Source: Escherichia coli
Lineage (GTDB): Bacteria > Pseudomonadota > Gammaproteobacteria > Enterobacterales > Enterobacteriaceae
Strand: one strand, 5' to 3'
DNA length: 64,000 nucleotides
Assembly (NCBI RefSeq): GCF_041886205.1
Contig: NZ_CP169029.1
Part shown: in pieces, positions 1 to 25,994 of the stretch
Numbering within the stretch: the first letter of the stretch is position 1
Layout: every line of letters begins with the position of its first letter
Made by a program: the position numbers and the translations under genes
Notes under the pieces: generated by a model
Database searches by the model: none
What the model was told of the DNA's origin: nothing
What the model saw: the letters and a program-made list of their open reading frames with translations, nothing else

Positions 1-3000
1 TGCAGGCCGGGATGTGAGCAGTCAGGGTGCAGGTATCGCAGCGGAAGACAACATCACTGTCCGGGCCGGGCGCGACGTTAATCTGCTGGCGGAAGAGTCC
101 GTGACCGGCAGCAGTTCATACTCGAAAAAGAAAACGGTCATTGATGAAACCGTTCGCCAGCAGGGAACGGAAATCGCCAGCGGTGGTGACACCACCATTA
201 CTGCAGGACGGGATATCACCGCTGTTGCGTCATCCGTTACCGCAACCGGCAATATCAGTGTGAATGCCGGTCGTGATGTCGCCCTGACCACGGCGACAGA
301 AAGTGACTATCACTATCTGGAAACGAAGAAAAAAAGCGGAGGTTTTCTCAGTAAGAAAACCACCCACACCATCAGTGAGAACAGTGCCACCCGTGAAGCA
401 GGCGCCCTGCTGTCGGGGAACCGCGTGACCGTTAACGCCGGTGATAACCTGACAGTACAGGGTTCGGATGTGGTGGCTGACCGGGATGTGTCACTGGCGG
501 CGGGTAACCATGTTGATGTTCTTGCTGCCACCAATACAGATACGTCCTGGCGCTTTAAGGAAACGAAGAAATCCGGTCTGATGGGTACCGGCGGTATTGG
601 TTTCACCATTGGCAGCAGTAAGACAACGCACGACCGCCGCGAGGCCGGGACAACGCAGAGTCAGAGTGCCAGCACCATCGGCTCCACTGCCGGTAATGTC
701 AGTATTACCGCGGGCAAACAGGCTCATATCAGCGGTTCGGATGTGATTGCGAACCGGGATATCCGCATTACCGGTGACAGTGTGGTGGTTGACCCGGGGC
801 ATGACCGTCGTACTGTGGACGAAAAATTTGAGCAGAAGAAAAGCGGGCTGACGGTTGCCCTTTCCGGCACAGTGGGCAGTGCCATCAATAATGCGGTTAC
901 CAGTGCACAGGAGACGAAGGAGAGCAGTGACAGCCGTCTGAAAGCCCTGCAGACCACAAAGACAGCGCTGTCTGGTGTGCAGGCCGGACAGGCTGCGGCA
1001 ATGGCCACCGCAACCGGTGACCCGAATGCGACGGGAGTCAGCCTGTCGCTCACCACCCAGAAATCGAAATCACAACAACATTCTGAAAGTGACACAGTAT
1101 CCGGCAGTACGCTGAATGCCGGGAATAATCTGTCTGTTGTCGCAACCGGCAAAAACAGGGGCGATAACCGCGGAGATATTGTGATTGCAGGAAGCCAGCT
1201 TAAGGCCGGTGGTAACACAAGCCTGGATGCCGCGAATGATATTCTGTTGAGTGGCGCTGCAAATACACAAAAAACAACGGGCAGGAACAGCAGCAGTGGC
1301 GGTGGCGTGGGTGTCAGTATCGGTGCCGGTGGTAACGGTGCCGGTATCAGTGTCTTTGCCAGCGTTAATGCGGCAAAAGGCAGCGAGAAAGGTAACGGTA
1401 CTGAGTGGACTGAAACCACAACAGACAGCGGTAAAACCGTCACCATCAACAGTGGTCGGGATACGGTACTGAACGGTGCTCAGGTCAACGGCAACAGGAT
1501 TATCGCCGATGTGGGCCACGACCTGCTGATAAGCAGCCAGCAGGACACCAGTAAGTACGACAGTAAACAGACCAGCGTGGCTGCCGGCGGCAGTTTTACC
1601 TTTGGCTCCATGACCGGCTCAGGTTACATCGCTGCCTCCCGGGATAAGATGAAGAGCCGCTTTGATTCCGTTGCTGAACAAACCGGAATGTTTGCCGGTG
1701 ACGGCGGCTTCGACATTACAGTGGGCAGACATACCCAACTGGATGGTGCGGTGATTGCCTCCACTGCCACACCGGATAAAAACCACCTGGATACCGGAAC
1801 GCTGGGGTTCAGTGACCTTCACAACGAAGCGGATTATAAAGTCAGTCACAGTGGAATCAGTCTGAGCGGTGGTGGCAGCTTCGGGGATAAATTTCAGGGT
1901 AACATGCCGGGTGGCATGATATCCGCCGGAGGTCACAGCGGACATGCGGAAGGAACGACTCAGGCCGCAGTGGCAGAAGGCACTATCACCATCCGGGACA
2001 GGGACAATCAGAAGCAGAATCTGGCGAACCTGAGCCGTGACCCTGCGCACGCTAATGACAGTATCAGCCCGATATTTGACAAGGAGAAAGAGCAGAGGCG
2101 TCTGCAGACAGTGGGGCTTATCAGTGACATAGGCAGTCAGGTGGCGGATATTGCGCGTACACAGGGAGAACTGAATGCGTTGAAGGCCGCGAAGGAAGCA
2201 ACCGGCGAAACACTTCCTGCTAATGCAACAGAGAAACAACGTCAGGAATATCTTGCGAAACTGCGTGACACGCAGGCTTACAGGAATGAAATGGCGAAGT
2301 ATGGCACTGGTAGTGAAATTCAGCGGGGTATCCAGGTCGCGATGGCAGCGCTTCAGGGCCTGGCGGGCGGCAATATGGCAGGCGCGCTGGCAGGTGCTTC
2401 AGCGCCGGAGCTGGCGAACATCATCGGTCATCACGCGGGTATTGATGACAATACAGCTGCAAAAGCCATTGCCCATGCCATTCTCGGTGGTGTGACAGCA
2501 GCCCTTCAGGGCAACAGTGCGGCAGCAGGCGCAATTGGCGCGGGTACTGGCGAAGTGATCGCGTCAGCCATTGCGAAAAGCCTCTACCCGGACGTAGATC
2601 CGTCGAAACTGACAGAAGAGCAGAAGCAAACTGTAAGCACGCTGGCAACGCTGTCAGCGGGTATGGCCGGCGGTATTGCCAGTGGCGATGTGGCTGGCGC
2701 GGCTGCTGGGGCTGGTGCCGGGAAGAACGTTGTTGAGAATAATTTACTTGGCGGTAGTGAAGATGCTCAGGCTGCGTGGATACGCCAGCATGGTATCGAC
2801 ATGGCGACATGTGCAGAAAACCCTTCCGGTGCCGCCTGCCAGAAAGCAATGAATGAGAGGGATGCTGTAGGGCTGGCTCTGGCAACAGGTACAGTGGCAC
2901 TACTCCCCGGTAGTGCTCAGGCTATGTGGGGACTGGGAGCAAGTGCGAATGCTGGTATCAGTTATCTGGCTGATGGTACTGTAGATCCGGCAAACGCAGC

Positions 3001-3406
3001 CATTGCAGGCTGGGTGAATGTGTTCAGCATGGGTAATGGCCTGGCGGGGACTGTGGGCTGGAATGCGGCAGGTGGTGCGCTGGGTAACTGGATCGACAAC
3101 AAAGATCCTCTGTCTGGTGCAATTTCAAATGGTATCGGTTCTGCTGCCGGGTATGGTATCGGTAAAGGTGTTACTTGGGGGACAGATAAGATTACGAATG
3201 CTGTAGGAAAATGGGTGACAAATGGCTGGGATCCTAAGTACGATCCAACATGGATAAAATATGCTGAAGTAAATCGTAACGATATCATTCGAGAAGGCAT
3301 GAAACCGAGCAATGTTCCTGGAACTGCTGGAGATATTGGCGGTTCTATAGGATCTGAGCTAGGTGGAAAAGTAACAGATAAAGTATCTGAGGAACTCAAG
3401 AAATGA
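1..3406 (+). CDS. cdiA: CdiA contact-dependent inhibition exoprotein, C-terminal part (5' partial, gene continues upstream of window)
   Basis: Frame open from window start; repeated AGRD/AGND hemagglutinin-type repeats; pretoxin region; VENN motif encoded at 2732-2743 followed by a ~220-aa glycine-rich C-terminal domain ending in a K-rich tail. Confidence 0.85.
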
Positions 3407-3660
3407 AATATTCTTCTCGAGTGGTAATAGGTAAGTTTATTATATGCAGTTCAATTCTCTTATTGTGTTTTATTGGCATGATCTTAGCGGCCATAATAAC
3501 TAAACTAACGTTTGTAGCGTTAGCATGGTTTCAAAGCGGGATTTTTGAAGTTTTGTGGAGCGATATTGTTTATGCTGCTCAGTTGGGTGGTCTGGGGGGG
3601 GGCATATTAGGTTTTTGTTGGGTTTTGTTATATCTTTTTAGGGCAAAGGGCTTTAGTTGA
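3403..3660 (+). CDS. cdiI: Putative CdiI immunity protein (85 aa, predicted membrane protein)
   Basis: Start overlaps cdiA stop (ATGA); small hydrophobic protein immediately after the toxin domain. Confidence 0.65.
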
Positions 3661-4564
3661 GAATAACTACCTCAGCTACGACGAGGCGCATGCTTTTGAC
3701 AGAGAAATGACGGCCTGTCGTAAAGCGGGTGGAGACTGTGGCGATATTCAGAATAAATATGCTGTATTAAGCGCAGAGAACCGACAGAAATTACACATTG
3801 ATGTGGCTGCAGATCCTCTTACGGCTCTGTCCGGGGAAGATAAATGGAATATTGAGGGCGGACTCAGCGCGGCGGGCCGACCTGGCTGGCTGTATGGTTC
3901 ACTGACTAATCAGGAGGTGAAGGATTACGTGACTGAAGGCAACAGCTACGACCTGAACTATCTGAACAGTAATACGTCGAAGGGTGACAGGGCTCTGGCT
4001 TTCTTCGGGGAACCGGAAAATTACTGGGGTACGGTTGCCGGAGCGGGTTCGTTGTTAACGTCATCAGCCACGCTGACTGAAAAATTTGTCAGTGCCGGGC
4101 TGAGCTATGGGGCTAATGGTGCGGTACAAATTGGTACGGGAAATATCGGTGATAAGTTCGATTATCTCAGTTTCATGATGTCAGGCTTGACTGGTGTAGG
4201 TACAGCCGGGAAAGGATATTACGCTAACCAGTTGTTGGGTGCTGGTAGTGCTTACATGAGCAGCCAGATTGAAGGCCAGGACAGTACCGCATCAGTAGTG
4301 GGTAGCATGGCTGGTACAGGCCTAGGATATAACGTTGGTGCTTCAATTACTAATAAGTTAGAAGCTCAATACATCAAAAATCAACTGGGAATGGACGCCA
4401 GTAAATATTCACTGCAATATTCGGAAAAGTCTATCGGATACGGTATGTATCAAGGCGGACAAATGAGTTCTATACCAGGAACATTTGGTGGATTTGTTGG
4501 TTCATTCGTATCAGAAGGTGCAAGCAGCGCAACGCAAAAAGAAGTTGATGGAGACAAAAAATGA
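3656..4564 (+). CDS. Orphan cdiA-CT module 1 (VENN remnant + glycine-rich toxin domain); internal ATG at 3707
   Basis: Frame begins with [11 protein letters not shown] directly after cdiI stop, with no upstream start; Gly-rich domain ending EVDGDKK like the main CT. Confidence 0.65.
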   Translation, partial: VENNYLSYDEAHAFDREMTACRKAGGDCGDIQNKYAVLSAENRQKLHIDVAADPLTALSGEDKWNIEGGLSAAGRPGWLYGSLTNQEVKDYVTEGNSYDLNYLNSNTSKGDRALAFFGEPENYWGTVAGAGSLLTSSATLTEKFVSAGLSYGANGAVQIGTGNIGDKFDYLSFMMSGLTGVGTAGKGYYANQLLGAGSAYMSSQIEGQDSTASVVGSMAGTGLGYNVGASITNKLEAQYIKNQLGMDASKYSLQYSEKSIGYGMYQGGQMSSIPGTFGGFVGSFVSEGASSATQKEVDGDKK

Positions 4565-17226: not shown

Positions 17227-17287
17227 TTTTGTGCGTAACCGGCTCATTTAAACCGTCTGGTCTGTTTCCTCCGGCTCTACAAAAATA

Positions 17288-17965
17288 ATGTCCATCATTT
17301 TTAATGGACACTATCGTATGAAACACCGGACCTGGATCACTGAAGCTTTACGTCTTCACTTTGAAGAACATTTACCCCGGGTTGTGGCCGGGCGTCGCCT
17401 GGGTGTACCAAAATCAACAGTTTGTAGTATGTTCGTGCGCTTTCGGAGAGCTGGCCTTTCGTGGCCTTTGCCCGCAGGCATGTCGGAGCAGGAACTTGAT
17501 GCCTGCCTTTACGGACAATTTTCCACGGTACCAGTCGTACGTCCTGAAAGCACCGTTATATCCGAAGCCCCCGTGGTAAAAAAACGTCCCCGGCGGCCCA
17601 ACTTCCCTTATGAGTTTAAAATCGCCTTAGTGGAGCAGTCACTGCAGCCCGGAGCCTGTGTGGCGCAGATCGCCCGGGAAAACGGAATCAACGATAACCT
17701 GCTCTTCAACTGGCGCCATCAATACCGGAAAGGTGGCCTGCTGCCTTCCGGAAAAAATATGCCGGCACTGCTTCCCGTGACGTTAACGCCGGAGCCGGAT
17801 AATAAAATCCCGGCCCCCGCACAGGAACCAGAGCAGATAAATACACCGTCCGACAGTCTGTGTTGTGAGCTGGTTCTGCCGGCCGGAACTCTCAGGCTTA
17901 AAGGTAAACTGACGCCGGCGTTATTACAGACACTTATCCGCGAAATAAAAGGGAGCAGCCACTGA
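17288..17965 (+). CDS. tnpA: IS66-family Orf1 (TnpA-like); start uncertain
   Basis: HTH region; first gene after the left inverted repeat. Confidence 0.6.
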   Translation: MSIIFNGHYRMKHRTWITEALRLHFEEHLPRVVAGRRLGVPKSTVCSMFVRFRRAGLSWPLPAGMSEQELDACLYGQFSTVPVVRPESTVISEAPVVKKRPRRPNFPYEFKIALVEQSLQPGACVAQIARENGINDNLLFNWRHQYRKGGLLPSGKNMPALLPVTLTPEPDNKIPAPAQEPEQINTPSDSLCCELVLPAGTLRLKGKLTPALLQTLIREIKGSSH

Positions 17966-18312
17966 TGATATCTCTCCCTGCAGGTTCGCGTATCTGGCTG
18001 GTTGCAGGTATCACCGATATGCGAAATGGCTTTAACGGCCTGGCATCAAAAGTTCAGAACGTCCTGAAGGATGACCCGTTCTCCGGACACCTGTTCATCT
18101 TCCGCGGACGCCGGGGTGACCAGATAAAAGTGTTGTGGGCTGACAGTGACGGACTGTGCCTCTTCACCAAACGCCTGGAGCGGGGCCGCTTCGTCTGGCC
18201 AGTCACCCGTGACGGCAAGGTGCACCTTACTCCGGCTCAGTTATCCATGCTTCTTGAAGGTATCAACTGGAAGCACCCGAAACGAACGGAACGCGCTGGA
18301 ATCCGCATATAA
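17965..18312 (+). CDS. tnpB: IS66-family Orf2 (TnpB)
   Basis: 115 aa, typical TnpB sequence. Confidence 0.85.
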   Translation: MISLPAGSRIWLVAGITDMRNGFNGLASKVQNVLKDDPFSGHLFIFRGRRGDQIKVLWADSDGLCLFTKRLERGRFVWPVTRDGKVHLTPAQLSMLLEGINWKHPKRTERAGIRI

Positions 18313-18331
18313 CCCGTTGTAAAGTGAGGAT

Positions 18332-19903
18332 ATGGACACCTCACTTGCTCATGAGAACGCCCGCCTGCGGGCACTGTTGCAGACGCAACAGGACACCATC
18401 CGCCAGATGGCTGAATACAACCGCCTGCTCTCACAGCGGGTGGCGGCTTATGCTTCCGAAATCAACCGGCTGAAGGCGCTGGTTGCGAAACTGCAACGTA
18501 TGCAGTTCGGTAAAAGCTCAGAAAAACTTCGTGCAAAAACCGAACGGCAGATACAGGAAGCACAGGAGCGAATCAGCGCACTTCAGGAAGAAATGGCGGA
18601 AACGCTGGGTGAGCAATATGACCCGGTACTGCCATCCGCCCTGCGCCAGTCTTCAGCCCGTAAACCGTTACCGGCCTCACTTCCCCGTGAAACCCGGGTT
18701 ATCCGGCCGGAAGAGGAATGCTGTCCTGCCTGTGGTGGTGAACTCAGTTCTCTGGGATGTGATGTGTCAGAGCAACTGGAGCTTATCAGCAGCGCCTTTA
18801 AGGTTATCGAAACACAACGTCCGAAACAGGCCTGTTGCCGGTGCGACCATATCGTGCAGGCACCAGTACCTTCAAAACCCATTGCACGCAGTTATGCCGG
18901 AGCGGGGCTTCTGGCCCATGTTGTCACCGGGAAATATGCAGACCATCTGCCGTTATACCGCCAGTCAGAAATATACCGTCGTCAGGGAGTGGAGCTGAGC
19001 CGTGCCACACTGGGGCGCTGGACAGGTGCTGTTGCTGAACTGCTGGAGCCGCTGTATGACGTCCTGCGCCAGTATGTGCTGATGCCCGGTAAAGTCCATG
19101 CTGATGATATCCCCGTCCCGGTCCAGGAGCCGGGCAGCGGTAAAACCCGGACAGCCCGGCTGTGGGTCTACGTCCGTGATGACCGTAACGCCGGTTCACA
19201 GATGCCCCCGGCGGTCTGGTTCGCGTACAGTCCGGACCGGAAAGGTATCCATCCACAAAATCACCTGGCCGGTTACAGCGGTGTGCTTCAGGCCGATGCT
19301 TACGGTGGTTACCGGGCGTTATACGAATCCGGCAGAATAACGGAAGCCGCGTGTATGGCTCATGCCCGGAGAAAAATCCACGATGTGCATGCAAGAGCGT
19401 CCACCTACATCACCACGGAAGCCCTGCAGCGTATCGGTGAACTGTATGCCATCGAGGCAGAGGTCCGGGGCTGTTCAGCAGAACAGCGTCTGGCGGCAAG
19501 AAAAGCCAGAGCCGCGCCACTGATGCAGTCACTGTATGACTGGATACAGCAACAGATGAAAACACTGTCGCGTCACTCAGATACGGCAAAAGCGTTCGCA
19601 TACCTGCTGAAACAGTGGGATGCACTGAACGTGTACTGCAGTAATGGCTGGGTGGAAATCGACAACAACATCGCAGAGAACGCCTTACGGGGAGTGGCCG
19701 TAGGCCGGAAAAACTGGATGTTCGCGGGTTCCGACAGCGGTGGTGAACATGCGGCGGTGTTGTACTCGCTGATCGGCACATGCCGTCTGAACAATGTGGA
19801 GCCAGAAAAGTGGCTGCGTTACGTCATTGAACATATCCAGGACTGGCCGGCAAACCGGGTACGCGATCTGTTGCCCTGGAAAGTTGATCTGAGCTCTCAG
19901 TAA
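18332..19903 (+). CDS. tnpC: IS66-family transposase TnpC
   Basis: 523 aa; leucine-zipper N-terminus, zinc-finger cysteines, [20 protein letters not shown]. Confidence 0.9.
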
Positions 19904-19906
19904 ATA

Positions 19907-21382
19907 TCAATACGGTTCTGACGAGTCGCTTACTTTTGTGCTGTCGCCAAAATCACTAATCCCTCTCACAATAAGCGCTGGAACTCCCTGCTTTTCGCAG
20001 GCATCAAATACCCCATAGGCTTCCATTTCGGCAACACAGGCTTTGTCATGAAGCGACCTGAAACGTTCTAGTAAAGCAGGATCGCGGATAAGAAGCTCTC
20101 CTGATGCGATAGTGGCTGAAGAAACAATTATCCCAGCAGCTACGTCTCCAGCCTGCGAATTTTCAGGCATTTCGAGTCCTATAGCCTGTGCCCGTTCGCC
20201 AAGACGTGCGGATAGTGACGTTGTTGCAAGGTAAGTATTGAGGTTTTGTTTAGTTGGCATATGGAGACATAATATTTCAGGTCGAGGAGCAAACTTCCCA
20301 CCTTCTAATGCGGCTGCACTTTCATAATAAATGACACGCTCAGAAATAATGACTTCACCTAGCACCATTTTTTCTCTCAACCCCGCCGCAATCCCCATCA
20401 TCAAGACTTTTTGGGGTTTGAATTCCGACAACAACATGGTAGTAATAGCTGAAGCATTCACATTTCCAGCACTAGCGAAAGACGCCACTATGCCAGTTAC
20501 TGGGCCATCTGAGCGTTGTATGGATGTGGACCAGAAATGTATTCCATTTGATGTGAGCCGCGGAGATTCATCATCAGCTATGCCAAATACTTTCTTGGCT
20601 GCAGCAAGTTCAACTGGTAGAGCTGTCAAAATCAACACATTTGGAGTATGCAGCAACTGTTGTGCAGCCCATTCAGCTTTAAGCAATTCAACTGCGATTT
20701 CTGAAAGTCGTTCCAGTCCATAGTAAGGTTCCTGTAACGATAAAGTGTCGAGCTGATTTTTTACGGCTTCACCGGTGCAAGGGAACATAGACAGCGGCTC
20801 TGCATAAAAACGTGCATGTAGGCCTAAAGCACCTTTTCCGTCATCGCAAATTCCCCCAAGCTCCAAGTCAAACGGTAATATGGGGTGGTTGGCTTTACGC
20901 ATTTTACTCGCACGATCGGAAACGCCTTTTCCTCCACCTAATGCAATCATGGCTGTGGCAGCATCAACCTGCTCGCTTCCAATATTTCCTCCAGTAATGA
21001 GATCATCATCTAGATAGCTGACATCAGCAAATCTAGCTGCCTGAAGTTTACGAATAAGCATCCGATTCTCTTCAGACATTTTCTCCCGCATTGCAGAACG
21101 CGACGTGACGATCTTGAGTTGGTGGGCTGGCGTATAATTCTCCATTAAATCTACAGCTTCTTTTACTATCGTCCAGTCGAAGGTCAGGAGATCCCCATTT
21201 TCATTAACAGGTTCTCCTGCCAAATAGACAACTAGTCCCACATTTGCATCAAGGATGCTCTTCGTCAATGCTCGAACGAAACTATGTGCTCGATCAATAT
21301 AAAGTTTTTCTGTATTTTTGGATATACTTCCAGCGATCAGAACATACTCATTATTAGTATTTGTCATCACAATTCTTCCCAA
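19907..21382 (-). CDS. Two-domain protein: N-terminal Rossmann-like domain with GGGKG motif (possible ligand sensor) + C-terminal PNP/MTA-nucleosidase-family domain; 3' end interrupted by IS66 element 2
   Basis: C-terminal half has nucleosidase-like motifs (VAEMEAYGV, RGISDFGD); last 8 codons and stop are IS-encoded (VSDSSEPY*). Confidence 0.6.
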   Translation of the reverse strand: MGRIVMTNTNNEYVLIAGSISKNTEKLYIDRAHSFVRALTKSILDANVGLVVYLAGEPVNENGDLLTFDWTIVKEAVDLMENYTPAHQLKIVTSRSAMREKMSEENRMLIRKLQAARFADVSYLDDDLITGGNIGSEQVDAATAMIALGGGKGVSDRASKMRKANHPILPFDLELGGICDDGKGALGLHARFYAEPLSMFPCTGEAVKNQLDTLSLQEPYYGLERLSEIAVELLKAEWAAQQLLHTPNVLILTALPVELAAAKKVFGIADDESPRLTSNGIHFWSTSIQRSDGPVTGIVASFASAGNVNASAITTMLLSEFKPQKVLMMGIAAGLREKMVLGEVIISERVIYYESAAALEGGKFAPRPEILCLHMPTKQNLNTYLATTSLSARLGERAQAIGLEMPENSQAGDVAAGIIVSSATIASGELLIRDPALLERFRSLHDKACVAEMEAYGVFDACEKQGVPALIVRGISDFGDSTKVSDSSEPY

Positions 21383-21396
21383 AGGAGTATTACTTG

Positions 21397-22296
21397 TTAC
21401 TGTTTAAGTAAGGCATAGATTTCATCCTTGTTTTTTAATGCTAACTGTAATGCTTCCGGCGCCTGATGTGACTGAGTCTCTGTAAGATTTAACTGGAAAA
21501 GAAGGTAGTGCAGCAAAGCTTGTCGGCATTCCAGATGGATTTCTCCGTCGATCATTGCATAATCTCTCTCAATAAGGTTTCGTTGAGCAAGGCATAGTCC
21601 AGGATGCGCTATAAGAATAATTTTGATGAATGTATTCCACGCTAAATCACCATTAGCCCTCTCTTCATCGGGTCCGGCGTTTTGTGCCTGCACTATTCGC
21701 GACAATAAAAAGTCCCTATATTCACCACGTTTATGACACCATGCTCTTGTGTGCCAGCGATAACCATCATGGACTAATGAATGAGGAGTCAAGGTTCGTT
21801 TACTGCCTTGAGGGTCACTCATGGATTGATAAATAACATGAACAGCCTCATTTTCACGTATAGCTCGTAATATTTGACTTACGACATCAGTGTCCAGTCT
21901 ACGTAACAGTCGTGGAACCGCTGCAACGGGTGAGCGCCAGCCCAGAAAGCTTCCAAAATGAATTTCAGGTTGTATTGCCACTCGCAGCAAATCATTCAGA
22001 TAACATTCCAGAGAGCTGGTCATATAAACTGGCTGAAACAATTTCGTTGAACGGTAAACTCGGGAACTCATATCGTACTCAAGATTATCGGGGGCTAACT
22101 TAGTATATTCACTAAGATCCAGCGAAGCTTGAGGTACTGATATGCCGAAAAAATCAGTGAGGCTGCTACGATTGATTTGCCCATCCCATCGAAGTCGATA
22201 ATCAATAAATTCAAGCCGACGCTCTTGGCCCCATCTCGCACCTTGCCGTCCTTTTTGGCTGTCTTGCTTATCCCCTTCTCTAAAGTTATCTGGCAT
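21397..22296 (-). CDS. WYL-domain transcriptional regulator (CapW/BrxR-like)
   Basis: 299 aa; N-terminal wHTH, central WYL-type motif (HDGYRWHTRAWCHKRGEYRDFLLSRI); divergent from the nucleotidyltransferase operon. Confidence 0.65.
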   Translation of the reverse strand: MPDNFREGDKQDSQKGRQGARWGQERRLEFIDYRLRWDGQINRSSLTDFFGISVPQASLDLSEYTKLAPDNLEYDMSSRVYRSTKLFQPVYMTSSLECYLNDLLRVAIQPEIHFGSFLGWRSPVAAVPRLLRRLDTDVVSQILRAIRENEAVHVIYQSMSDPQGSKRTLTPHSLVHDGYRWHTRAWCHKRGEYRDFLLSRIVQAQNAGPDEERANGDLAWNTFIKIILIAHPGLCLAQRNLIERDYAMIDGEIHLECRQALLHYLLFQLNLTETQSHQAPEALQLALKNKDEIYALLKQ

Positions 22297-22394
22297 CTTA
22301 GTTCCCGGTAGCGTATAAAAAATATCTCAATATAAAAAGTAGACGCAGAATAAAAACTGAACGTATAATAATGCTACGCTATAGGGCGGTAAGG

Positions 22395-22434
22395 TGCAAC
22401 CATCACCTCAGTCACTTCTGAGGTGATGGTTGCA
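22395..22434. promoter_or_regulatory. Perfect 17-bp inverted repeat (TGCAACCATCACCTCAG - 6 bp - CTGAGGTGATGGTTGCA) in the divergent intergenic region; candidate operator or 5'-leader hairpin
   Basis: Lies between a -10-like TATAAT (~22363) and the RBS/start at 22466. Confidence 0.5.
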
Positions 22435-22465
22435 GTTTTCATGAATGATCTTCGGAAGGATGTGA

Positions 22466-23410
22466 ATGCCACTCACTAATACTCAGATCCGATACTACGA
22501 CAGCAATGTACTGCGTTTGCCTAAGGATAAGCGTGAAACCTACAATGCCCAAGTAGATCGGCTTATTACAGCGTTACGTAAAAAACTGAAAGATCAGGAT
22601 AAAATAACAATAAAACGTGTCGTTAAAGCTGGTTCGTTTGCTAAACACACTATTCTACGCAAAACCTCAGACAGTCAGGTCGATGTGGATGTTGTGTTTT
22701 ACGTTAGTGGAGAGAAAGTTGCTGAGGAAACCTTCGCAAGCCTGAGCGAAAAAATTTACGAAGCCTTACTTAAAATGTATCCCAACAAAGCTGTAGAAGA
22801 TTTCGAGATTCAACGTAAGGCTGCTACTGTTTCTTTTGTCGGGACTGGATTAGATGTTGATATTGTTCCCGTCATCGAAAATCCGGACAAAGAAGGCTAT
22901 GGATGGCAGTTTGACCGTATCGATGGTTCGAAGACAGAGACTTGTGCTCCTTGCCAGATCAAATTTGTGAAAGATCGCAAAGACCAAGACCCGGACTTTC
23001 GTACTTTAGTACGCTTAGCTAAACGTTGGCGTACCAACATGGAATGCCCACTTAAGTCATTTCATATAGAACTAATCATGGCTCATGTACTAGAAGTCAA
23101 TGGAAAAGATGGTTCGTTGGAGAAGCGATTTCGGGATTTTCTACTGTACATTGCTGAATCAGGATTAAAAGAAGTTATCACCTTCCCTGAAAATAGCACT
23201 ATACCAGCATTTTCCCATCCAGTTGTCATACTGGATCCTGTTTGCGATACGAACAACGTTACCAGCCGTATTACCGAGGATGAGCGAAAAGAGATCGTCC
23301 GGATTGCTGAGGAAAGTTGGGCGACGGCAAATTTTGCGTCGGTAGAAGGAGACTATGATATCTGGAAGGAGCTGTTTGGTCGTTCATTTAAAGTGGAGGA
23401 TACAGCATGA
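22466..23410 (+). CDS. cGAS/DncV-like nucleotidyltransferase (CD-NTase-like)
   Basis: 314 aa; GS-x9-S-x5-DVD nucleotidyltransferase motif, third acidic residue in LDVDIVPV; RBS GGAAGGA upstream. Confidence 0.65.
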   Translation: MPLTNTQIRYYDSNVLRLPKDKRETYNAQVDRLITALRKKLKDQDKITIKRVVKAGSFAKHTILRKTSDSQVDVDVVFYVSGEKVAEETFASLSEKIYEALLKMYPNKAVEDFEIQRKAATVSFVGTGLDVDIVPVIENPDKEGYGWQFDRIDGSKTETCAPCQIKFVKDRKDQDPDFRTLVRLAKRWRTNMECPLKSFHIELIMAHVLEVNGKDGSLEKRFRDFLLYIAESGLKEVITFPENSTIPAFSHPVVILDPVCDTNNVTSRITEDERKEIVRIAEESWATANFASVEGDYDIWKELFGRSFKVEDTA

Positions 23411-23895
23411 GTTACTCCTCAACTGAAACATCGACTTATACCACAACAGACGTTGAAGCAGTCATGCGACGCATCACAGCTGACTTAGTGATGATTGCCG
23501 CCAGTACCGGTGCGATAACTGAATCAAAAGCACGTGAGTATGCTCACGATATAGAACTCTTAGCAAAAAATGGATATCTGGATTACGTCGATGTGACCCT
23601 TATAAGCAATGGCGTTGAACAGAAAGCAACCCGGTTTCATGTGAATGAGTCCGGAGAATTGGCAAATGACAGACCTGGAGACGCTCGTTGGCCGAGAATT
23701 CAGGGGGCTTATCTGCGGATTGTTGTGAACAACCGGAGTACCTACGATCAGGCTGCGAGGCAAAAGCTTTCAGGTAAGATGAAAATATCGTGGTCGCCAT
23801 GTAGTGATGACATCAGTCATTCAGGTTTGACCCAAAGTGGTGGTCGTGAATATTCCAGCAATGGTTATGGTATGCAACGTAAGGATTACAATTAA
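23407..23895 (+). CDS. Small protein (162 aa), possibly HORMA-like (Cap7-type); assignment from position and size only
   Basis: Translationally coupled (ATGA overlap) between the nucleotidyltransferase and the AAA+ ATPase. Confidence 0.35.
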   Translation: MSYSSTETSTYTTTDVEAVMRRITADLVMIAASTGAITESKAREYAHDIELLAKNGYLDYVDVTLISNGVEQKATRFHVNESGELANDRPGDARWPRIQGAYLRIVVNNRSTYDQAARQKLSGKMKISWSPCSDDISHSGLTQSGGREYSSNGYGMQRKDYN

Positions 23896-24791
23896 TGAGC
23901 AAGAGTAGTGTTTTCGACTCAGTGATTGATTTACCGCAGCGCGAACTGACAGAGCGAGAGAACATTTTACTTGGCTTTGAAAGTCGTTATGAGAGTGTCC
24001 ACAACCAACTCAACCTGCTGCTTAACCAAGGGCAACTCCTTGACTGGAGCAAGAAGTACCATAAGAGCGTTTTACCGCTCTGCAAGCTCGTTGCTGAGCA
24101 GTATCCGCTTGTTATTTTTCATGGTGATGTAGGAACAGGTAAAACAGCAACTGCTGAGTGCATCGCGAATCGTCTTGTCCGCGAGTCTCGCACTGAAGAT
24201 TCGGCCCTCTTTAAGCTCAGCAATCGGGTCCGTGGTTCCGGAAAAGTGGGGGAGATGGGGACGCTACTAACTCAGGCATGGGCAGAAGTGTGCGAGGCTG
24301 CGGGTAAAAATCGCAGAGCAATACTGATTATTGATGAAGGGGATTCAATTGCAGCTTCCCGTTCTCAAAACCACAGCCATCATGAAGATAAAGTAGCAGT
24401 AAATACTTTAATTCAAGGAGTGGATGAGCTACGAAAATTTGGCGGCCGGGTTGTGGTAATTTTATGTACTAATAGACTATCCGTCCTTGACCCTGCACTT
24501 CGTAGGCGAGCAGCGATTGTCGAAGAATTTACTCGCCCCGGGCTCACAGAACGAGAATCGCTTTTTCGCATGGATCTTGGAGGGATGGGATTGTCAGATA
24601 GTCAATATCGTCAACTAGCGGTGGCAACTGGTGAGAAAGAAAATCTGCCAGCATGGACATACTCTGATATCCGTACGCGCCTCTATCCCGCAGCAATGTC
24701 AAGAGCGTTTCCTGAACGGGCTTTAAGTTTTAATGATTTGATGGAATTATTGAAAATAATGAGGCCTTCCCCCGTCATGGGAGATATATAA
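23895..24791 (+). CDS. AAA+ ATPase, possibly TRIP13/Pch2-like (Cap6-type)
   Basis: 298 aa; Walker A GDVGTGKTA, Walker B ILIIDEGD; overlapping start with the upstream gene. Confidence 0.5.
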   Translation: MSKSSVFDSVIDLPQRELTERENILLGFESRYESVHNQLNLLLNQGQLLDWSKKYHKSVLPLCKLVAEQYPLVIFHGDVGTGKTATAECIANRLVRESRTEDSALFKLSNRVRGSGKVGEMGTLLTQAWAEVCEAAGKNRRAILIIDEGDSIAASRSQNHSHHEDKVAVNTLIQGVDELRKFGGRVVVILCTNRLSVLDPALRRRAAIVEEFTRPGLTERESLFRMDLGGMGLSDSQYRQLAVATGEKENLPAWTYSDIRTRLYPAAMSRAFPERALSFNDLMELLKIMRPSPVMGDI

Positions 24792-24848: not shown

Positions 24849-25451
24849 TTGTTGATTTACGGTGCACTTCTTGCAAGCAGGAACTATATGAGAACTGATA
24901 AAGAAATTTTCGTTTCAGTTGATGTGGAAACATCAGGCCCTATTCCGGGGAAATACAGTATGTTATCGATAGGTGCTTGTGTGGCATTTGAACCATCAAA
25001 GCAATTTTCATGTTACCTTAAACCGATATCTGAAGATTTTATCCCTGCGGCTATGGAAGTGACTGGGTTATCGCTGGAGAAGTTGCACGTCGATGGTTTG
25101 GATCCTGTTGATGCAATGGTTCAATTTAAAGAATGGATTAATTCGGTCGTAAAGGAAGATGAGACTGTAGTTTTTGTTGGTTTCAATGCTTCATTTGACT
25201 GGAGCTTTATTAATTATTATTTCCATGTATATTTAGGTGATAATCCTTTTGGCATCGCAGCACTCGATATAAAATCAATGTATTTTGGCGTTTCTCACGC
25301 CTCATGGAGATTAACACGTTCTAGTGAAATAGCGAAAGTTGTCAAACCTGAGACATATGGTGATCATGATGCATTACATGATGCCCGATATCAGGCTGAA
25401 CTATTCCGGTTGATCGATAAATTGAGCGAGAAGAAAAAATTAGATCGATGA
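24849..25451 (+). CDS. DEDDh-family 3'-5' exonuclease (DnaQ-like fold); likely start at Met 24888
   Basis: Exo [11 protein letters not shown], Exo [11 protein letters not shown], Exo [17 protein letters not shown]. Confidence 0.75.
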
Positions 25452-25538: not shown

Positions 25539-25994
25539 ATGAATGACGAATTTAGCTGTGCAAGTGAGCATATCTGGAAATATTTCGAATTGCATGCACA
25601 ACAAAGAATGACTGTTTTCAATTTTTACATTGCGATAACAGGACTTCTTGCTGCTGGCATTGGGGTTACTCTCCAACAAGGAGGGAAGTATGTATTATTT
25701 ACTTCACTTATGGGGGTGTTTGTAGCATTTATTTCATTTATTTTCTGGAAATTGGATCAGCGAGTGTCGATTTTAATAAAAAATGCTGAAATTGCTCTAC
25801 AAGATCTTGAATGTCAATTTTCCAATGAAAAGCTGAGGATAATCACTAAAGATAATAGCAGTCATTTGCTAAACTTAGGCATTAGTTCTTCTTGGACTTA
25901 TGGAAAATGCTTCCGCATTTCATTTGTTATAGTAGGTCTTACTGGGATATTACTTGCGATTACACCTTTTCTGATGAAAGTCTCGACTTCTTAA
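25539..25994 (+). CDS. Small predicted membrane protein (151 aa), function unknown
   Basis: Two to three hydrophobic helices; last gene before the IS2-like element. Confidence 0.4.
   Translation: MNDEFSCASEHIWKYFELHAQQRMTVFNFYIAITGLLAAGIGVTLQQGGKYVLFTSLMGVFVAFISFIFWKLDQRVSILIKNAEIALQDLECQFSNEKLRIITKDNSSHLLNLGISSSWTYGKCFRISFVIVGLTGILLAITPFLMKVSTS

Follow-up and report, generated by a model that had tools for sequence, protein, structure and literature searches.

The DNA stretch analyzed here (the window, 64 kb of Escherichia coli DNA) contains a complete type III CBASS locus according to PADLOC profiles. The genes of the locus, together with the features of the intergenic region between capW and cdnC, are listed in Table 1. 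The locus shares 99.4% identity with upec-117, a system that has been studied experimentally, and its CapW protein is one residue apart from WP_001534693.1 of upec-117. The 2-kb capW-cdnC stretch is 100% identical to that of E. coli ZYB39 and 99.4% identical to that of EcPF14 (CP054230.1), and the intergenic region itself spans 169 bp. Because the locus matches upec-117, the inverted repeat that is the subject of this work belongs to a model system. Upec-117 CBASS serves as the reference for how CapW controls bacterial immunity in response to DNA damage, and the GFP reporters constructed for this system include the leader region in which the repeat is located.

Table 1. Genes of the CBASS locus and features of the capW-cdnC intergenic region (positions in the window)
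Feature	Position	Strand	Remarks
cap17, effector	19907-21382	-	PADLOC E 3e-245
capW, wHTH-WYL-WCX repressor	21397-22296	-	WYL profile E 1.7e-19
Predicted sigma-70 cdnC promoter, -35 TAGACG, 18-nt spacer, -10 TATAAT	22340-22369	+	promoter scan, 10/12 match
Published CapW operator, 21-bp imperfect palindrome AACGTATAATAATGCTACGCT	22360-22380		probe sequence and binding published
Possible divergent capW promoter, -35 TTGCAC (22399 to 22394), 17 nt, -10 TAGCAT (22376 to 22371)	22371-22399	-	deduced
Predicted 5' leader of the cdnC-HORMA-TRIP13-cap18-cap19 mRNA	22376-22465	+	holds the hairpin
Left arm, 5' strand of the leader hairpin	22395-22411	+	first 5 nt overlap the possible capW -35
Loop/spacer TCACTT	22412-22417	+	exact reverse complement of AAGTGA (near-identical alleles, sister lineage)
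Right arm, 3' strand of the hairpin, derived arm	22418-22434	+	middle TGATGG replaces ancestral AAGACTG
U-run after the stem, GUUUUCAUG in RNA	22435-22443	+	stem and tail flagged as terminator-like by scan
Shine-Dalgarno sequence GGAAGGA and cdnC start codon	22454-22468	+	outside the hairpin
cdnC, CD-NTase/SMODS oligonucleotide cyclase, first gene of the operon	22466-23410	+	PADLOC E 7e-124
HORMA	23407-23895	+	PADLOC E 7.5e-81
TRIP13	23895-24791	+	PADLOC E 5.7e-125
cap18, exonuclease	24849-25451	+	PADLOC E 2.4e-90
Putative membrane protein, Cap19 equivalent	25539-25994	+	no PADLOC match

The repeat is formed by TGCAACCATCACCTCAG, the spacer TCACTT and CTGAGGTGATGGTTGCA. As the original prediction had it, the repeat is perfect and lies between the genes for the WYL regulator and the nucleotidyltransferase: all 17 positions of the arms are complementary (100%), the spacer is 6 nt and the whole element measures 40 bp. 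Its arms are the longest of any perfect hairpin-type inverted repeat in the window, the second longest being 13 nt, and simulating the window 30 times with a first-order Markov model gave maximum perfect arms of 8-12 nt. The repeat is far beyond chance expectation. A second copy of the arm was not present in the window, even when up to three mismatches were allowed, and the repeat was found in only 5 of 5,426 complete E. coli genomes, at one place in each. This single occurrence, both in the window and in each genome, led us to reject a repeated element of the REP or MITE type.

The placement of the repeat also agrees with the earlier description, in which it was said to lie between a -10-like hexamer and the RBS of the first operon gene and to be followed by a run of Ts. 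The repeat starts 26 nt past the -10 hexamer TATAAT (22364-22369) and lies 20 nt upstream of the Shine-Dalgarno sequence (22454-22460) and 31 nt upstream of the ATG of cdnC (22466), and the sequence directly 3' of it is GTTTTC (22435-22440). The same cdnC promoter is predicted in the sister lineage locus L117, the Klebsiella locus L082 and the Pseudomonas-type locus L005. The predicted start of transcription implied by this promoter is approximately 22376 (~7 nt past the -10), which would put the repeat at about +20 to +59 of a 90-nt cdnC leader. The predicted fold of this leader has a free energy of -42.9 kcal/mol (z = -4.7) and is dominated by the 17-bp stem.

Based on its size and placement, the repeat had been proposed to be the operator of a dimeric WYL repressor. 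In published work, dimeric CapW was shown to bind a 21-bp imperfect palindrome over the CBASS -10 and to repress transcription both ways (Blankenchip et al. 2022, PMC9122588); the site was placed over the -10 using a BPROM prediction (PMC9122588). The published 30-bp CapW probe, 5'-TAAAAACTGATCGTATAATAATGCTACGCT-3' (Blankenchip et al. 2024, PMC11662680), which CapW binds with a Kd of 1.5 µM (Probe #3; PMC9122588), corresponds to positions 22351-22380 of the window with one mismatch. The operator covers the -10 hexamer TATAAT; the repeat begins 15 bp downstream of the operator end and does not overlap the -10. Moreover, the repeat arms are devoid of the CGTA..AT half-site and of any CGTA motif, and the element is 40 bp against an operator size of 19-24 bp. 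The operator motif CGTATA.TAAT..TACG is kept in syntenic orthologues whose CapW is at least ~60% identical, and is degenerate in the most distant loci (L012, L015 and L017). In orthologues having a CapW that is 73-98% identical, the operator is kept and the repeat is not palindromic; in one of these, that of Pectobacterium, the spacer is 3 nt instead of 6. Because the published CapW operator is a separate 21-bp palindrome over the -10, the operator reading is not supported, and the repeat is very probably not the primary CapW operator. It resembles the CapW/BrxR operators of CBASS and BREX systems in being palindromic DNA, and it lies in the same capW-cdnC intergenic region of the system used to characterise CapW, but it differs from them in being located downstream of the predicted start, in being twice as long, in having another sequence and in not being palindromic in orthologues that contain CapW and its operator.

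The left end of the repeat overlaps a possible capW promoter on the other strand (Table 1). This candidate matches the consensus at only 7 of 12 positions in E. coli and was not flagged by the promoter scan. The sequence GCAA is found exactly 15 nt past the operator in syntenic orthologues (16 nt in L003 and L092), and at the homologous place in Pseudomonas borbori the scan detected TTGCGA-17-TATTAT facing capW, with a 9/12 match. A reverse promoter is reported in the CapW paper (its Fig. S5; PMC9122588). If our candidate corresponds to this reverse promoter, the operator would bear a -10 on each strand, and repression in both directions would have a simple basis. The capW -35 would in that case share the first 5 nt of the left arm, and this dual role would help to account for the conservation of the left arm rather than the right. 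Two other features were observed on the capW side of the operator. A sequence similar to a CapW half-site, AGCGTATA, is present at 22310-22317 beside the start of capW; it is kept in most orthologues and degenerate in the most distant ones. In addition, the region 22310-22360 contains three phased A-tracts of the form (T)ATAAAAA-N-T(A/G), starting at about 22314, 22333 and 22350. The A-tracts and the extra half-site could constitute an UP-element, bend the DNA or provide auxiliary contacts for CapW.

Orthologous loci were collected by a degenerate-peptide scan of one genome per species, by look-ups of exact proteins and by a DNA-pattern scan of metagenomes with the operator motif; the genome scan gave 14 syntenic loci, and the other two routes added more. 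The Enterobacterales set comprises Budvicia, Hafnia, Klebsiella, Citrobacter, Serratia and Pectobacterium plus metagenomic relatives, with CapW proteins that are 73-87% identical. Across this set the left arm has hardly changed. It is identical at 16-17 of its 17 positions in Budvicia, Hafnia, Klebsiella, Citrobacter and the sister E. coli-type lineage, and is therefore the ancestral arm. The right arm of the Enterobacterales relatives reads CTG(A/G)GGAAGAC(T/C)GTTGCA; because this differs from the complement of the left arm, their region is only a quasi-palindrome. Folding showed that a two-stem hairpin shape is common to 12 distinct enterobacterial leaders. The relatives' hairpin consists of a 6-bp lower stem (UGCAAC/GUUGCA), an internal loop of ~5x6, a 6-bp upper stem (CCUCAG/CUGAGG) and the hexaloop AAGAUA, and its predicted free energy is -12 to -16 kcal/mol versus -32 kcal/mol for the E. 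coli hairpin. A G/A-UUU(U/C) run is present 3' of the hairpin in all enterobacterial orthologues and absent from the Pseudomonas-type leaders described below; conservation of a U-run 3' of the stem is seen only for the cdnC strand.

Several substitutions in the stems leave pairing intact: U-A has become U.G in Budvicia, Serratia and L088, and G-C has become G.U in Pectobacterium and the Klebsiella locus L090. The only compensatory pair is a C-G to U-A change in L090. Assigning the structure to one strand by its wobble pairs was tried and gave mixed results, with G.U pairs inside the stems and, at loop-proximal or terminal positions in Hafnia, L092 and the Klebsiella locus L082, A.C pairs on the plus strand that correspond to G.U on the other strand. 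In Pectobacterium the loop is 3 nt and the upper stem 7 bp, which shows that the spacing of the arms is not fixed; a change of this kind would be tolerable for a hairpin and would not be for a rigid dimeric DNA-binding protein. In a stems-only alignment, 95.4% of the stem cells were paired, versus 27-47% when the partners were slid. Covariation of the enterobacterial hairpin was not significant, since there is too little variation: the single compensatory pair was equalled in 112-200 of 500 shuffles. Conservation of the stems could also simply reflect that of the DNA, which is 86% for the entire intergenic region. The hairpin is conserved in place and shape, and covariation does not prove its structure statistically. 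Screening against Rfam gave no match at the gathering threshold for seven orthologous loci, and a permissive scan of 22200-22600 returned chance miRNA-like matches only.

The history of the perfect repeat can be followed in closely related alleles. In the sister lineage (L117-L121), whose CapW is 98% identical and whose DNA is 96.8% identical over 3.86 kb, the leader is TGCAACCATCACCTCAG-AAGTGA-CTGAGGAAGACTGTTGCA, i.e., the right arm is imperfect and the loop is AAGTGA. The sister lineage and the outgroups together fix the ancestral state and the direction of change. Perfect arms combined with the loop AAGTGA are found in L124 (a 4.8-Mb NCBI contig), L098 and L105. The window, ZYB39, L122, L123 and L126 have perfect arms and the loop TCACTT, and upec-117/EcPF14, L099 and L111 have perfect arms and the loop TCATTT. 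The change of the right arm from AAGACTG to TGATGG involves one deletion and three substitutions in 6 nt, against a background divergence of 3.2%, and each of them adds complementarity to CCATCA of the left arm, which is unchanged in all outgroups. Over 10.1 kb, L098 and the window show four differences, namely the flip of the 6-nt loop and three SNPs. An assembly artefact is an unlikely cause of the flip, given that AAGTGA is present in the 4.8-Mb contig, in the sister lineage and in outgroups, and that the 40-nt element is shorter than a read.

Two replication template-switch events account for these alleles. In the first, the left arm served as the template for the right arm of the E. coli lineage (AAGACTG to TGATGG), so that a perfect 17-bp stem arose; in the second, the 6-nt loop was inverted from AAGTGA to TCACTT. 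The correction of quasi-palindromes by template-switch mutation was reportedly described by Ripley in 1982. Homogenisation of the arms and inversion of the spacer are documented outcomes of template switching at short inverted repeats (PMC8604942; PMC8794818), and both signatures are present in the aligned alleles: one arm has been made the exact complement of the other, and the spacer has been exactly reverse-complemented. The clustered arm change followed by spacer inversion, polarised by the sister lineage and outgroups, differs in nothing essential from known template-switch mutations (Abraham & Hazkani-Covo 2021, PMC8604942; Monttinen & Loytynoja 2022, PMC8794818), the present one being a natural case in the leader of a bacterial immune operon, in which the homogenisation of the arms alters the predicted terminator character. 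The origin of the perfect repeat by template switching is well resolved. Because the changes in arm and loop bear the marks of template switching, the perfect symmetry is a mutational signature and does not speak for a symmetric protein site. The series of alleles, from imperfect arms to perfect arms, a flipped loop and a point mutation in the loop, is an unusually clean natural example of the process, with a terminator-like hairpin produced in one step.

The E. coli hairpin and its tail are the sole terminator-like site that the terminator scan detected in the region, and no such site was detected in the intergenic regions of the sister locus L117 or the Klebsiella locus L082. A d'Aubenton-Carafa-type discriminant was +16 to +17 for the E. 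coli alleles, -22 for the sister lineage and -27 to -37 for the other relatives; the reference terminators scored alongside provide a rough scale only. The 17-bp stem contains nine G-C pairs and has a predicted free energy of -31.6 kcal/mol for the 40 nt alone and -32.4 kcal/mol with short flanks (z = -7.1). The U-tract GUUUUCAUG has a tail score of 3.17 and passes the scan, with only four consecutive U residues, located after a G. Because the imperfect hairpins of the relatives do not score as terminators, termination is not the ancestral function of the conserved hairpin, and its conservation would have another cause or none.

Besides an operator, the original prediction had considered a leader hairpin or an attenuator. 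This alternative, a hairpin or attenuator with a T-run behind it, is what the evidence favors; no antiterminator, leader peptide or aptamer could be discerned in the leader. The MFE and centroid structures are the same and dominated by the hairpin, which is preceded by only ~19 nt. Inspection of the alignment showed no conservation of small upstream ORFs, and the leader has no Rfam match. Since neither an antiterminator nor a leader peptide is evident, any termination would be constitutive. The published GFP reporter, which holds this leader, is strongly expressed once CapW is removed (PMC9122588); the hairpin is therefore not an efficient terminator, and read-through is substantial. The element shares with the intrinsic terminators found in other 5' leaders (the trp, his and pyrBI attenuators and riboswitch platforms) a stem-loop and a U-run between promoter and start codon, but it differs from them in being without an antiterminator, leader peptide or aptamer, in its four Us after a G, in a 17-bp stem that is about twice the usual length, and in its read-through. 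The words hairpin and stem-loop are absent from the text of the CapW papers PMC9122588 and PMC11662680, and full-text literature searches found no report tying CBASS to a 5' UTR hairpin or attenuator. The element appears to be a previously unreported stem-loop of the 5' leader, belonging to a familiar class and terminator-like in E. coli.

Our preferred interpretation, to which we give an even chance of being correct, is that the repeat encodes a cis-acting stem-loop in the predicted cdnC 5' leader, which was perfected by template switching and would act as a partial terminator. Termination as the function of the hairpin is a more tentative proposal, which we rate somewhat short of even. According to this proposal, the hairpin (~-32 kcal/mol) and GUUUUC would stop some of the RNAs initiated at the promoter that CapW controls. 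Partial termination would thereby add a constitutive brake on the basal output of a toxic abortive-infection operon, on top of repression by CapW. If functional, the hairpin would determine both the maximum and the leakage of CBASS expression, whatever the state of CapW, and this bears on the interpretation of the reporters and on the question of how cells silence a toxic abortive-infection operon. If the hairpin is inert, the value of the present analysis is narrower and consists in correcting a tempting mis-assignment of the operator.

Some additional observations concern the ribosome binding region. A small hairpin, AUCUUCGGAAGGAU (22446-22461), with a cUUCGg-like loop, covers the Shine-Dalgarno sequence, and relatives contain its counterpart AUUUUCGGGGGGAU. 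Accessibility of the RBS calculated by partition function did not separate E. coli from its relatives, and the local Shine-Dalgarno hairpin is present in all. The mini-ORFs at 22441-22479 and 22445-22465 were rejected as leader peptides, as they are not conserved in frame across orthologues. In L082 and L084 (Klebsiella/Citrobacter contigs), the cdnC start has been called at a TTG in the right lower stem, giving 326 instead of 314 aa, with GAGG of the upper stem as Shine-Dalgarno sequence; this start is probably a mis-call, because the extension is broken by stops or out of frame in E. coli, Serratia, Pectobacterium and others. The left arm contains at 22402-22409 the sequence AUCACCUC, which equals 8 nt of the 3' tail of 16S rRNA, and the right arm contains at 22420-22427 its complement GAGGUGAU, a perfect extended Shine-Dalgarno sequence. 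These matches within the arms may be a coincidence. A role of AUCACCUC as an anti-Shine-Dalgarno or decoy element is retained as a minor rival explanation only, since the Enterobacterales do not share its alternative pairing with the true RBS.

The hairpin might act on the cdnC mRNA without terminating transcription, by affecting its stability as an RNase III substrate, for which ~17-20 bp of dsRNA is long enough, or by tuning its translation; we regard this as fairly unlikely. RNase III processing hairpins are known in the rnc and pnp leaders and at the T7 early sites. The cdnC hairpin is similar to these in having about two turns of dsRNA in a 5' leader, and the internal loop of the relatives resembles the bipartite RNase III sites of T7, but E. 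coli has not kept the sequences of the loop and internal loop. What supports a leader hairpin applies equally to a non-terminating RNA, and the strong published reporter expression without CapW fits it. A role in mRNA protection of the classical 5'-terminal type is opposed by the distance of ~19 nt between the hairpin and the predicted 5' end. With respect to translation, the hairpin could keep the anti-Shine-Dalgarno sequence AUCACCUC, paired with GAGGUGAU, away from the true RBS, and a sequence like it, GCCAUCUC, is paired with the RBS sequence GGGAUGGC in leaders of the Pseudomonas type. However, inspection of the alignment showed that enterobacterial orthologues do not share the pairing between the left arm and the true RBS, the predicted Shine-Dalgarno accessibility is equal in E. 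coli and relatives, and covariation of the Pseudomonas anti-RBS helix is weak.

It is unlikely that the perfect palindrome is without function, as a selectively neutral consequence of template switching at a quasi-palindrome that already existed in non-coding DNA. The two E. coli-specific changes are both mutational signatures and not signs of selection, covariation is not significant, and the loop flips and mutates freely, as reflected in three loop alleles. These arguments are countered by the persistence of the two-stem shape and the U-run down to a CapW identity of 73%, including L089 and L090, in which the sequence of the upper stem and the length of the loop have changed, and by the stable, strand-specific and covarying leader structure of all distant orthologues. 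Finally, we consider it very unlikely that the repeat functions as DNA, either as an auxiliary operator for CapW or another dimer or as a cruciform modulating the divergent promoters: the perfect symmetry, the operator-like size of the inner CCTCAG-N6-CTGAGG, the modest affinity of CapW (Kd 1.5 µM) for a probe that does not contain the repeat, its repression of both directions, the loop inversion, which shows that the DNA arms interact in vivo, and, for a cruciform, the overlap of the left end with the possible capW -35 would fit such a site, but similarity to the CapW half-site is lacking, only a single E. coli lineage has the perfect symmetry, in contrast to the conservation of CapW and its operator, the relatives' arms are asymmetric in their central 5-7 nt, the Pectobacterium spacer is 3 nt, changes of the U.G type break DNA symmetry and keep RNA pairing, and the conserved T-run is strand-specific.

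The preferred reading, a stem-loop acting in the cdnC leader RNA, can also be viewed against more distant orthologues. Those of Pseudomonas, Halopseudomonas and related metagenomic sequences (L004, L005-L010, L024, L094, L096, L100, L103, L104, L108, L110, L115 and L116) contain a G+C-rich leader of 184-213 nt between the same operator and the RBS, and these leaders fold at -55 to -87 kcal/mol. In their helices A and B, 8 of the 15 pairs show compensatory changes, and none of 500 shuffles reached the observed percentage of paired positions or the observed covariation score. Because many of the pairs are G.U, the structure is specific to the cdnC strand. The helix between GCCAUCUC and the RBS sequence GGGAUGGC is conserved, with little covariation. 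The leader has no match to an Rfam family, and the ~190-nt Pseudomonas-type leader is a candidate for a new cis-regulatory RNA. Since these leaders are structured as well, structured leaders may be a general and undescribed feature of such operons. It is possible, though on balance we doubt it, that CapW-controlled type III CBASS operons carry an undescribed post-transcriptional layer of structured 5' leaders, of which the enterobacterial hairpin would be a reduced form and the E. coli repeat a variant converted to a leader terminator by template switching. If so, expression of the upec-117 model would depend on the structure of the leader RNA as well as on CapW.

Two carriers of the locus show changes on the effector or regulator side of the system. 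In the window, an IS66-like element with three ORFs (17288-17965, 17965-18312 and 18332-19903) has apparently inserted in the 3' end of cap17, occupying 17235-19932. Homology to EcPF14 and L098 breaks at 19933 and restarts at 17234, with an overlap of ~9 nt that resembles a target-site duplication. Intact cap17 encodes 505 aa, and the ORF in the window is short by about its last 27 codons; as the 3' end of cap17 has been lost to the insertion, the CBASS effector may be inactive in this strain. In the E. coli carrier L124 (GCA_033660265.1), cap17 is split into two ORFs of 244 and 278 aa (locus positions 2430-3900), and a single nucleotide is missing from its leader (GGTAAGG to GGTAGG), between the -35 and -10 of the possible capW promoter. 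L124 represents a second independent hit on the effector/regulator side of the CBASS system.
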